Origin: Thermoproteota archaeon
GTDB taxonomy: Archaea; Thermoproteota; Thermoprotei; Thermofilales; B9-G17
Direction: 5' to 3'
Assembly (NCBI GenBank): GCA_029258885.1
Contig: JAPDJW010000003.1
Location: 1-64,000 of the forward strand
DNA length: 64,000 nt
Shown: in pieces, positions 26,204 through 29,519 of the stretch
How positions within the stretch are numbered: the first letter of the stretch is position 1
Layout: every line of letters starts with the position of its first letter
Translations under genes and position numbers: made by a program
The notes under the pieces: model-generated
Seen by the model: only the letters and a program-made list of their open reading frames with translations
Database searches by the model: none
What the model was told of the DNA's origin: nothing

Positions 26204-28690
26204 ATGAAGTGGTATAAGATTGGTCGTGAATTCGTTTACCCAGACTATAAGCCGATGTTCCCTAGGGATCCCGAGTACAAGCTTCTCTCTGTTGACCTAG
26301 AGCTTAAGCTCAACTTTATGGAGAGGAGGGCCTTTGGGAAAGTGCTACATAAGGTTGAGGCCTTAACCAATATTTCATCCATAAAGCTGGATGCAGTCGA
26401 CATGGAGATTACTAGTGTTCACGTAAATGGTAAAGATGTGGACTTCAGCTATGATGGTAGTGTACTGGAGATATATCCCGGAGAGATTAAGAAGGGGGAG
26501 AAGGCTGAGGTCGAGATAGAATATGTGATTGAGAAGCCCATGAAGGGGCTATATTTCGTACCCTTTGATTCGGATGAGCCTGCCTATCAGGTCTGGACTC
26601 AGGGTGAAGCCGAGGATACTAGATACTGGATACCCATATACGATTACCCGAATATGAAGGCTAAGGTTAAGCTGAGCCTAATAGTTCCCAGCAACTATAT
26701 TGCCGTAGCCAACGGTAGGCTTATTGAGAAGGAGAAGCTGGAGGATGGATACTGTAAGTGGACGTGGCTTCAGGAGGAGCCCATATCGATATACTTGATC
26801 GCGTTTATAGCCGGCGACTTCCACATTCAGGAGGATGAGGTGGATGGATTAAAGCTAATGTACATCGTGCCTAGGGGGAGGGAGGAGGATATAGAGAGGA
26901 GCTTCTCCAAGACGCCTAAGATGATTAAATTCTTTGAGGAGTTTACGGGGGTTAAGTTTCCATACGTTAAGTATGCACAGGCATGCGTAACCGACTTCGT
27001 GGCCGGAGGCATGGAGAATGTTTCACTAACTATATTAACTGAATCGACGCTCCACGATGAGCATGCACATATGGACTTTAGAAGCGAGCCTCTAGTGGCA
27101 CACGAGCTTGCACACCAGTGGTTCGGCGACCTAGTAACCTGTAGGGATTGGAGCCATATATGGTTGAACGAGAGCTTCGCCACCTTCATGGAGATACTTT
27201 GGAGGAGGTTCGACCTGGGCGAGGACGAGTTTATCTACGGACTGATAGGGATGATGGATTCCTACCTGAGTGAATACGGCCGCTACTCTAGGCCAATAGT
27301 TATGAGGATATACGGTTCACCGGATGAATTGTTCGACGCCCACAGCTACCCTAAGGGAGCGCTGATACTGAGGATGCTCATGGAGATTCTAGGCGAGGAC
27401 GGCTTCAGGAAGGTAATAAAGAGTTACCTTGGAAAATACTCCAATAAAACAGCTGATACTGAGGATTTAAGGAAGGTTTTCGAGGAGGTCTGTGGACTGC
27501 AGCTCGACTGGTTCTTCGAGCAGTACATATATAACGCTGGACACCCGGTGCTTAAGGTTAGGTGGAAGTGGATTAATGAGGATAAGATGCTTGAAGTAAA
27601 TATCGAGCAGACGCAGAAGGATGATTCGTGGAGTGAATACAGGCTCCCACTCGAAATAGAGGTCGTCGGGGATAAGCCCGTTAGGAAGAAGCTATGGATA
27701 ACAGAGAAGTCAAAGACCGTATACATAATGCTCGATAGGAAGCCTAAGGCTGTGCTGATAGATCCAGAGTTTAAGACGTTTAAGGCGCTCAATCTCGACG
27801 TAGGCGTTGAAGAGCTGATAAACATAGTTGAAGCCAGTAAATACCTCTATCCAAGGGTTATGGCCGTAAGGAAGCTGGGAGAGAAGGGAGGACTGAAGGC
27901 TATTAAGAAGCTACACGAGATACTTGTAAATGAGGACGAGTTTTGGGGATTAAGGAGGGAGGCAGCTAAGGCTCTAGGCAAGATAGGTAGCAGTGATGCT
28001 TTAGATAAACTAGTTGAGGCTTTAAAAACAGCTAAACATCCCAAGGTTAGGAGGGCGATAGTAGAGGCTCTCGGCTCGTTTAAGGAAGATAAAGTCGTCA
28101 AGCCTCTAATAGAGGTTTTAAGAAATAGCAGGGAAAGCTACTATGTTAGGGCATCAGCCGTCCTCAGCCTAGCTAAGACGAGGCATAGGGACGCCTTTAA
28201 CGAGCTCGTAAAAGCCCTAGAATACAAGTCGCACAACCACGTTATATTAACGAGCGCACTGGAGGGGCTCGGAATACTGGAGCTGAACGAATCTAAGGAG
28301 ATAATACTGAAATACGTTAAGGACAAATCTATAATAGTAAAGTCTGCGGCAATATCAGCTCTAGGATACTTCACCTCAGATAGGAGGATTAGGGAGATAC
28401 TTTCATCCTATGCTAAACATCCTCATCCAAGAGTTAGAAGGGCAGTAATATCCGCAATAGAGAAGAGCATGGACGAAAGACTGCTGGAAGTACTCGACCA
28501 GATAGCATCAACAGACATACACGGAGGACTTAGGAGGAGAGCTAGGGACGCCGCTAAGAAGATAAGGAAACATATGGAGAAGGGAGTAGAATACAGGAAG
28601 CTTAGGGAGGAGCTGGAGAAGATCAGGAGGGAAGAGAGAAGGCTCGCCGAGAGAATAGAGAGGCTCGAAGCTAAAGGAGCCTACACATAG
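26204..28690 (+). CDS. pepN: M1 family aminopeptidase N with C-terminal HEAT repeats and coiled coil
   Basis: GGMEN, HELAHQWFG...WLNESFA, YPKG; repeated VRRA..EALG HEAT units. Confidence 0.93.
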   Translation: MKWYKIGREFVYPDYKPMFPRDPEYKLLSVDLELKLNFMERRAFGKVLHKVEALTNISSIKLDAVDMEITSVHVNGKDVDFSYDGSVLEIYPGEIKKGEKAEVEIEYVIEKPMKGLYFVPFDSDEPAYQVWTQGEAEDTRYWIPIYDYPNMKAKVKLSLIVPSNYIAVANGRLIEKEKLEDGYCKWTWLQEEPISIYLIAFIAGDFHIQEDEVDGLKLMYIVPRGREEDIERSFSKTPKMIKFFEEFTGVKFPYVKYAQACVTDFVAGGMENVSLTILTESTLHDEHAHMDFRSEPLVAHELAHQWFGDLVTCRDWSHIWLNESFATFMEILWRRFDLGEDEFIYGLIGMMDSYLSEYGRYSRPIVMRIYGSPDELFDAHSYPKGALILRMLMEILGEDGFRKVIKSYLGKYSNKTADTEDLRKVFEEVCGLQLDWFFEQYIYNAGHPVLKVRWKWINEDKMLEVNIEQTQKDDSWSEYRLPLEIEVVGDKPVRKKLWITEKSKTVYIMLDRKPKAVLIDPEFKTFKALNLDVGVEELINIVEASKYLYPRVMAVRKLGEKGGLKAIKKLHEILVNEDEFWGLRREAAKALGKIGSSDALDKLVEALKTAKHPKVRRAIVEALGSFKEDKVVKPLIEVLRNSRESYYVRASAVLSLAKTRHRDAFNELVKALEYKSHNHVILTSALEGLGILELNESKEIILKYVKDKSIIVKSAAISALGYFTSDRRIREILSSYAKHPHPRVRRAVISAIEKSMDERLLEVLDQIASTDIHGGLRRRARDAAKKIRKHMEKGVEYRKLREELEKIRREERRLAERIERLEAKGAYT

Positions 28691-28692
28691 GC

Positions 28693-28762
28693 TGTGCGGG
28701 CCCCGGGATCCCCTCCTTCATCGACGGGCCACCCCTACTCGGAGGGTGATACTAGGGCCCGC
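28693..28762 (-). ncRNA. Single-hairpin H/ACA box guide RNA
   Basis: GCGGGCCC-U-AGUAUCA-CCCUCC-GA-(GUAGGGGUGGCCCGUC)-GAUGAA-GGAGGG-GAUCCC-G-GGGCCCGC-ACA: lower stem, bipartite pocket, upper stem, GA/UGA K-turn-like motif, and ACA 15 nt from the top of the pocket; GC-rich island in an AT-rich intergenic gap. Confidence 0.8.
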
Positions 28763-28805
28763 CAATATATAATATCTACTTGCTACTTTTATTTTTGGTG
28801 CTTTA

Positions 28806-29519
28806 ATGTACATCTATAGGCTCATGGATGAAGTCTACGAATGTAGCATAGTTGAGAGAGTAAACAGGTTCGTTGTTTTAATAGAGATGGAAGGTAGGAG
28901 GTATAGGGCTAGAATAACCAATACAGGTCGCCTCCACGGCCTTCTCTATAGGGGTGCTAAGGGCTACTGTATAAGGAACAGAGGAGGCAGTACGGACTAT
29001 CATCTTATAGGAATTAACGTAGGCTTAGGGGATAGGGCGGCGCTAATAGATACAAAGATCCAAGAGGACGTATTCTACAATGCAGCTTCTGATGAAGCTA
29101 TACCATGGCTTAAACCATACACTATAGTTAAACGATACCCTAAGGTGGAGGGAAGGAGGCTCGACTTTAAGATAGGCTATGGCGATAAATTGGGTTTCAT
29201 AGAGCTTAAGAGCGCAGTACTGCTACACGATGGAATATACGGCGGCTACCCGGATTGTCCAAGCATAAGAGGAAGGGATCATATAAGGATACTAATTAAC
29301 CTTAAGAGGCGAGGATATAGGGCAATTCTAGCCTTTGTAGTAGCACATCCCCTAGCCGTAGCCTTTAAACCCTATAGAAAAGGAGACCCCATAATCGCAA
29401 GCCTTATAGAGGAAGCTCATAAGATTGGCGTGGAGACCTACGCATTGAAGATGTCTTTTCTTCCAATAAAAGAATTAATTATTATAGAAAATTTTCAGAT
29501 TAAAATAAATTATATATAG
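28806..29519 (+). CDS. sfsA: Sugar fermentation stimulation protein A (PD-(D/E)xK nuclease-like)
   Basis: RVNRFV, ITNTGRL, RLDF, IELKS, YPDCPSIRGRDHI. Confidence 0.92.
   Translation: MYIYRLMDEVYECSIVERVNRFVVLIEMEGRRYRARITNTGRLHGLLYRGAKGYCIRNRGGSTDYHLIGINVGLGDRAALIDTKIQEDVFYNAASDEAIPWLKPYTIVKRYPKVEGRRLDFKIGYGDKLGFIELKSAVLLHDGIYGGYPDCPSIRGRDHIRILINLKRRGYRAILAFVVAHPLAVAFKPYRKGDPIIASLIEEAHKIGVETYALKMSFLPIKELIIIENFQIKINYI

Follow-up and report, generated by a model that had tools for sequence, protein, structure and literature searches.

On the minus strand of the window, the whole 64,000-nucleotide stretch of Thermoproteota DNA that was analysed, a short intergenic hairpin is very likely a functional box H/ACA sRNA gene, and the full reading, in which this minus-strand sRNA guides pseudouridylation in the 790 loop of 16S rRNA, is probably correct. 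The predicted modification falls in a functionally important loop, adjacent to one that has been proven in Sulfolobus and has long been known from eukaryotes. Since pseudouridylation of this loop is already documented, the prediction is plausible rather than surprising, and the modestly new element is an evolutionary one, namely that a scaffold fitting the peptidyl-transferase centre of 23S rRNA (U2586) appears to have been redirected to the 790 loop. The hairpin belongs to an uncatalogued H/ACA sRNA family with 12 members, two of them in the host genome, in one order of a poorly sampled Thermoproteota branch.

The hairpin, as read from the sequence, spans 73 nt on the minus strand (28691-28763), which is probably also the extent of the sRNA. 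Its core at 28693-28762, with the ACA box 15 nt from the pocket top, had been described in the first-pass annotation, and that description is exact in the sequence. The lower stem, P1, is formed by GCGGGCCC (28755-28762) and GGGCCCGC (28696-28703); it comprises 8 bp, or 9 if U10.G60 is counted, and is followed directly by the ACA box (28693-28695). Above it opens a bipartite pocket, whose 5' guide strand UAGUAUCA (28747-28754) contains a GUAUC (28752-28748) complementary to 16S GAUAC, and whose 3' guide strand GAUCCCG (28704-28710) contains an AUCCC (28709-28705) complementary to 16S GGGAU. The upper stem, P2, pairs CCCUCC (28741-28746) with GGAGGG (28711-28716) and has 6-7 layers, depending on a non-Watson-Crick layer between A17 (28747) and G54, which closes the pocket in the window RNA. 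Between the final Watson-Crick pair of P2 (G53) and the ACA box the distance is 15 nt, or 14 nt if the A17.G54 layer is counted. Both stems were assigned from the sequence, the predicted fold and covariation.

On top of P2 the sequence forms a K-turn module (28717-28740), in which GA (28740-28739) stands opposite a GAU bulge (28722-28720), a second GA (28719-28718) and an extra A (28717). The C-stem is small and irregular, opening with a G-C pair (28738/28723) that is followed by a GGG/CCC stem-loop. With A17.G54 counted, the stretch from the pocket to the second G.A pair comprises 9 layers along its 5' side and 10 along its 3' side, where classic hairpins have 8-11. The fold has an energy of -40.8 kcal/mol (z = -3.1 relative to shuffles); in the minimum-energy fold at 37 C the pocket is partly closed by AUC-GAU self-pairing, which counts against the preferred explanation. 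Productive archaeal guides follow a '10/5/9' rule, with about 10 layers stacked between the closing pair of the pocket and the second of the G.A pairs, a single-stranded 3' segment of 5-6 nt and a lower stem of 8-9 bp, and hence 14-15 nt to the ANA box (Toffano-Nioche et al., PMC4652768). The corresponding values in the window RNA are 9-10 layers, a 5-nt 3' guide (AUCCC), a 9-bp P1 that includes U10.G60, and 14 nt. The slight irregularity of the K-turn, noted at first pass as one extra A, is visible at 28717, and an extra nucleotide recurs in the family. As a bulged base is found beside the G.A pairs in several Pyrobaculum sRNAs (PMC4652768), and as the two sides of P2 comprise 8 and 10 bases in stem-loop SL1 of the H. 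volcanii guide sR-h45 (Majumder et al., PMC7075261), this extra A lies within known variation.

Most of the 115 nt that separate two plus-strand genes are taken up by the hairpin, which is antisense to both. The first encodes an M1-family aminopeptidase with HEAT repeats (26204-28690, stop codon at 28688-28690), and the second, on the other flank, an SfsA homolog (28806-29519). A TATA-like A/T-rich box on the minus strand, AAAAAUAAAAG (28796-28786), has its centre approximately 28 nt upstream of the hairpin's first G, which is the expected place of an archaeal TATA box, and is a putative promoter of the sRNA. A/T-rich boxes likewise occur approximately 21-32 nt upstream of the hairpin in the three closest homologs (genomes G021, G024 and G022). 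At its other end, the sRNA abuts the stop codon of the convergent M1-peptidase gene. Directly 3' of the ACA box, at 28678-28693 on the minus strand, AGCCUAUGUGUAGGCU makes up a small hairpin, after which comes CCUUUAGCUU; these elements lie within the closing codons of the peptidase gene, in antisense orientation, and may represent the 3' end of the sRNA or a terminator. The sRNA is convergent with a protein gene in four genomes (L005:1501-1572, L006:1501-1572, L011:1501-1573 and the window, 28691-28763), its 3' end starting 0-9 nt from the stop codon of that gene in each case, and the four protein genes are unrelated.

The host 16S rRNA gene (contig 3, 67677-69174) reads AAAGGGGAU-UA-GAUACCCCC around position 750. 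AUCCC pairs with GGGAU (745-749) and GUAUC with GAUAC (752-756), which yields 5+5 pairs, all of them Watson-Crick, and leaves U750-A751 unpaired between the two guide duplexes. This is the complementarity to GGGAU-UA-GAUAC that had been read from the pocket at first pass; the optional sixth pair proposed there, with CGGGAU, is absent, as the host 16S has a G where the C is needed. When every U in the host 16S, the 23S and 27 tRNA genes found by aragorn was scanned as a target, the U750 site ranked first with 10 pairs, the next best site having 8. Only 1.4% of 1000 shuffled guide pairs reached 10 Watson-Crick pairs anywhere. Summed over the two arms, the pairing energy is -13.1 kcal/mol at the 16S site, as against -7.6 kcal/mol at the runner-up, 23S U319, and -4.8 kcal/mol at the 23S U2586 site.

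Searches for 16S and 23S genes in the homolog-bearing genomes G021, G022 and G024 and in a sister genus (G001) returned none, and the target was therefore checked against the order-wide 16S, which is invariant: the core motif occurs exactly once in each of 17 genomes of the order, and the 37-nt target context is identical in all 12 of the 16S loci that were read out, that of the host included. Points against the preferred explanation include the pairing of only 5+5, the A.G layer that closes the pocket in place of a standard pair, and the location of the proven Sulfolobus and yeast pseudouridine one nucleotide to the 5' side of the base that canonical geometry predicts. In H. volcanii SL1, 3+5 pairs suffice (PMC7075261). 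The first rank in the scan, the rarity of equally good shuffles, the invariance of the target and a second GUAUC copy in another family of the order (genome G035, described below) together bear out the 790-loop target named at first pass, which as a prediction is well supported by computation.

The foremost rival is that the hairpin is a genuine H/ACA sRNA whose true substrate lies elsewhere, or which has several substrates, with host 23S U319, an intron-containing pre-tRNA missed by aragorn, a crRNA or an mRNA as candidates. Archaeal guides are known to act on multiple targets, S. islandicus sR435 having eight, and many predicted targets fail while some real ones pair weakly (PMC11077068, PMC2377435); moreover, the tRNA scan covered just 27 genes. 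The best of the candidates, 23S U319, forms 4+8 pairs, three of them G.U, and thereby ties with the 16S site in a weighted pair score. It was nonetheless ranked lower on three counts: its weaker arm energy, the location of its 3'-guide half in sequence that varies among relatives, and the two guide bases that it leaves unpaired at the pocket top. The convergent guide in G035 also lengthens complementarity to the 16S site specifically, and a different or additional substrate appears unlikely.

Within the 790 loop, the pocket of the window RNA pairs the U788 equivalent with A55 and presents the U789 equivalent. In archaeal H/ACA guides the most 5' unpaired U is modified, a paired U is modified occasionally, and the pocket top takes up to four bases (PMC7075261). 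By these rules, host U750 (E. coli U789) is more likely to be the modified base, with U749 (E. coli U788) as a serious alternative. The first-pass annotation had likewise favoured the U789 equivalent; canonical geometry speaks for this choice, whereas the site proven in Sulfolobus and yeast is U788, which had been offered only as the alternative.

The S. islandicus site comes from a study in which all rRNA pseudouridines were mapped, and in which guide deletion and in vitro reconstitution established that 16S U747 is pseudouridylated via sR563 (Li, Wu, Ye 2024, PMC11077068). There, Psi747 is listed as the equivalent of yeast Psi999 (PMC11077068, Table 1), in agreement with the equivalence invoked at first pass for the yeast snR31 site. 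The sR563 guide acts in a crenarchaeon, and in a Cbf5-dependent manner, on the same 16S helix-24 (790) loop as is predicted for the window RNA. Compared by description, the two differ in the base addressed: the proven site of sR563 is the first U of GAUUAG, while the window RNA canonically presents the second (789). The numbering was checked by placing U747 on the 16S of a Sulfolobaceae-like genome (G216, 2.7 Mb) with a 2-nt offset, at which six of eight published sites are U (477, 747, 930, 943, 1009 and 1162) and position 747 falls on the first U in GAUUAG, which aligns with E. coli 788. The offsets agree with the host, as Sulfolobus U930 corresponds to host U932, and U1009 to host U1011. 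No paper giving the precise base of yeast Psi999 turned up in a literature search, and its assignment to the first U comes from PMC11077068 and the G216 numbering. Yeast snR31 (18S Psi999) is likewise an H/ACA guide for the equivalent small-subunit loop, but unlike the window RNA it is a two-hairpin snoRNA, with Nhp2 in place of L7Ae and the K-turn. The eukaryotic loop reads GAUCAG, so that only the U788 equivalent exists there.

The first-pass annotation had called the RNA unannotated, and indeed no Rfam model matches it: at gathering thresholds the whole 64-kb window gave no match for the sRNA, and at E<=10 the region 28400-29100 gave only an irrelevant lncRNA model at 10 bits. Homologs were instead sought with covariance models. 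With the first model (R1), for which only the single sequence was used, three homologs came up in a sister family within the order, and the second (R2) brought the number to 11, all in that order, which together with the window copy make up a 12-sequence alignment. A third model (R3) reached complete genomes of cultured type in the same order and other Thermoproteota. The window copy scores 92 bits with R2 and 77 bits with R3. Two further candidates (G097/L008 and L018 on contig 67 of G035) were rejected as homologs, as they have no ACA. A BLAST search with the hairpin gave no copy in the only other genome from the host's family, and a locus search based on SfsA led to one distant Thermofilaceae MAG with no syntenic sRNA. 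As the nearest named relative of a flanking gene comes from a Thermofilaceae MAG, the order looks Thermofilales-like, a placing for which this is the sole hint.

Most of this family appears to be built for a different target. In 10 of the 12 members, the 5' guide ends in (A/U)(C/U)GGUC and fits 23S GGGUU-UA-GACCGU, at host U2791, which by the E. coli sequence (U2580-GGG-U2584-U2585-U2586-A2587) is U2586. The 5' guides form 4-6 pairs with GACCGU (six in eight of the ten), or up to seven if the preceding G is counted. The 3' guides are more varied. Four members have AUACCC or ACACCC, which forms five pairs with one bulged guide base, and six have AUCCC, which leaves a U.U mismatch with 23S GGGUU but is perfect for 16S GGGAU. 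These six 23S-type members are L005, L006, L007, L010, L012 and L014, as read from the guide columns of alignment A5. The pockets of the ten fit the same site, with the same geometry, as H. volcanii sR-h45 SL1, the guide for 23S Psi2605 (E. coli U2586); in H. volcanii, the target is the third U of UUUA, the two preceding U's being paired and the next A unpaired (PMC7075261). The H. volcanii RNA differs in that it has two hairpins, with an AUA box serving SL1, and the window copy in that it has lost the 23S complementarity.

GUAUC is found in just two of the 12 members, the window copy and the copy of G035 (L011), which belongs to another family. Against the 23S site, the 5' guide of the window copy has only two pairs left (G-C and A-U), and it therefore falls outside the 23S-type guides; as UAGUAUC it prefers the 16S, at -11.0 compared with -4.4 kcal/mol for the 23S. 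In G035, AGGUAUC and AUCCCC form 6+6 Watson-Crick pairs with the 16S, at -16.2 compared with -7.4 kcal/mol for the 23S. As both targets share GGGNU-UA-GA, approximately three changes in the 5' guide (GGUC to UAUC) would have moved the window copy to the 16S, and judged from these guide sequences it looks to have been retargeted from 23S to 16S. It would thus exemplify a guide that gains a new rRNA target, for which few substitutions suffice when the targets share a motif. An example of this kind helps with annotation and with tracing how RNA-guided modification evolves, and leaves the known mechanism unchanged.

The remainder of the scaffold suggests that this happened more than once. With the guide columns left out, identity between the G035 copy and the 23S-type guides in its own family (f8) is 72-78%, and that with the host copy just 53%; the host copy in turn is closest to the 23S-type guides of families f3 and f6 (62-76%). 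As the G035 scaffold is nearer to the 23S guides of its own family than to the host copy, the same retargeting apparently arose twice, and two independent changes from 23S to 16S are the simplest reading of the sequences. The alternative is an old pair of paralogs that has been homogenised within lineages. With either history, complementarity to the 16S loop would have been preserved or brought about by selection. In a sample of 400 Thermoproteota that did not include G035, a strict pattern describing the 16S-type scaffold matched only the host copy and one chance match (G329/L050); the latter has neither lower stem nor ACA, and the reversed control pattern also gave one match.

The host itself retains a 23S-type member of the family on the minus strand of contig 3 (116865-116926; L019:1066-1127), to which R2 gives 26.5 bits and R3 51.5 bits. 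This paralog is of the K-loop form, with a 5' guide UAGGUC and a 3' guide ACACCC that fit U2791. Its presence would have left the window copy free to take a new target. The paralog sits in a divergent intergenic spacer, where an outer helix, GCCCGCUC/GAGCGGGC, encloses it and puts its ACA in an internal loop.

The same paralog also lends some weight to the second rival, in which the window hairpin would be a duplicate of the 23S-U2586 guide that is redundant or in decay, weakly active on 23S or functionless, and its 16S match a by-product of the likeness of the two target sequences. With a 23S-type 5' guide in 10 of the 12 relatives, and with AUCCC inherited together with the two uppermost bases of the 5' guide, only about three bases make up the extra fit to the 16S. 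A decaying copy would sit poorly with the window RNA, in which P1, P2, the K-turn, the ACA box and the spacing are all intact, and in which the 5' guide retains only two pairs with the 23S. Furthermore, GUAUC recurs on a different scaffold in G035, with longer complementarity to the 16S, and the chance that three free positions would all be Watson-Crick to the 16S is estimated at 1.6-3%. Drift from a 23S duplicate is therefore improbable, and ranks below another or additional substrate in likelihood.

As evidence that the hairpin is an RNA gene, the architecture by itself is weak. A loose H/ACA descriptor (8-bp P1, ACA, 5-bp P2 at 14-16 nt from the ACA and GA..GA on top) gave 51 raw matches in the 2.1-Mb host genome, four of them with GA..GA, as against 48 and one in the reversed genome. 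The alignment of the homologs decides the question, although its fit to a covariance model somewhat inflates the covariation figures: 93.1% of cells in the 12 sequences are in standard pairs, compared with 66% when shuffled and 37-53% with slid partners. Compensatory changes on both sides are seen in 17 of the 19 pairs, and none of 500 shuffles reached any of the observed measures. In P1, all 8 pairs have changed on both sides among the 12 members, with 96.9% of cells paired, as have 6 of the 7 pairs in P2, and between families the stems are almost wholly rewritten (for example GCGGGCCC, GCCUCCCC and GCCGGGC). The layer equivalent to A17.G54 covaries in the homologs (G.U in six, C-G in two, U-A in two and A-U in one), indicating a genuine closing pair whose make-up is non-canonical in the window copy.

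Against this rewriting, the functional elements stand out as constant. The ACA box is present in all 12 members, at 14-16 nt from the pocket in the homologs, and the distance from AUCCC to ACA is fixed across the family. GA...AUGA is kept in all long-form homologs, and the G26-C41 pair, the first of the C-stem, in ten of ten, while a K-loop replaces the K-turn in two members (G022 and the host copy on contig 3). The homologs adjoin unrelated genes. The host copy has M1 peptidase and SfsA as neighbours, the G022 copy an iron-dependent repressor, and those of G021 and G024 a DUF2067-RpoL-RNase III-like operon and NrdD. It follows that the conserved unit is the hairpin itself, on the sRNA strand, and that orthology is not arguable from gene order. 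The covariation, the conserved ACA and K-turn, the spacing and the genes for the four RNP proteins described below together lend strong support to the box H/ACA identity assigned at first pass. It is thus hardly credible that there is no RNA gene here, but merely a GC-rich palindrome that serves plus-strand mRNAs, for example at the 3' end of the M1-peptidase transcript, or a chance structure: the hairpin does lie 3 nt past the peptidase stop codon, its reverse complement also folds and scores 20.8 bits with R1 on the plus strand, and the loose descriptor yields about one chance match per genome, yet the strand-specific ACA and GA/AUGA K-turn are kept in 12 sequences beside unrelated genes, G.U pairs are kept only on the sRNA strand, and the rRNA complementarity is itself strand-specific.

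In overall design, the window RNA resembles the classic archaeal H/ACA sRNAs, such as Pf9/Pab91 from Pyrococcus, sR115/sR435 from S. islandicus and sR201/sR202 from Pyrobaculum. It shares with these the 8-9 bp lower stem with ACA immediately after it, the bipartite pocket, the K-turn with tandem G.A pairs, the distance of 14-15 nt to the ACA and rRNA complementarity flanking an unpaired UN. It differs in its A.G closing layer, in the extra A between the G.A pairs and P2, and in its target, and the Rfam searches detected no sequence or family relationship to these RNAs. Although it is predicted to act on the same loop as sR563, it has a lower stem as well as an ACA box and is thus distinct from the atypical class, comprising guides of the sR563 type and Pyrobaculum sR203-210, in which both are missing; sR563 itself also has a second target, Psi1162 (PMC11077068).

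Genes for Cbf5, Gar1, Nop10 and two L7Ae-family proteins are present in the host, all above the Pfam cut-offs. The TruB_N domain of its cbf5 gene (contig 2, 422792-423160, minus strand; L022) spans one in-frame TAA, which is probably a pre-mRNA intron as known in crenarchaeal cbf5; the S. islandicus Cbf5 is likewise encoded by two exons (PMC11077068). With these proteins, a course of events can be proposed. The sRNA would presumably be transcribed from its own A/T-rich promoter and, by analogy with solved archaeal H/ACA RNPs, L7Ae would bind its K-turn. The two pocket strands would then pair with pre-16S rRNA at 745-749 and 752-756, leaving U750-A751 at the pocket top, 14-15 nt from the ACA. 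In this position, Cbf5 would isomerise U750 (E. coli U789) to pseudouridine, or alternatively its neighbour U749.

As the 3' guides of many members fit the 16S better than the 23S, the family raises the further possibility of guides that serve both subunits. We tentatively suggest that one scaffold switches between 23S U2586 and 16S U788/789, which rank among the ribosome's most conserved sites, because both read GGGNU-UA-GA, and has done so at least twice independently in the order, and that the AUCCC members may be dual-subunit guides; in its entirety, this proposal is doubtful.

The third covariance model also found classic H/ACA hairpins in the complete genomes of genus g21 and in two other Thermoproteota families (L039:763-839, minus strand; L040:1501-1577, plus strand; L041, L042, L044, L043, L045 and L047). 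In two complete genomes of genus g21 the 3' guide is AACCC, which is perfect for GGGUU and gives the hairpins of this genus a clean fit to 23S U2586. Two of the R3 hairpins lie in a single Sulfolobaceae-like genome of 2.7 Mb.
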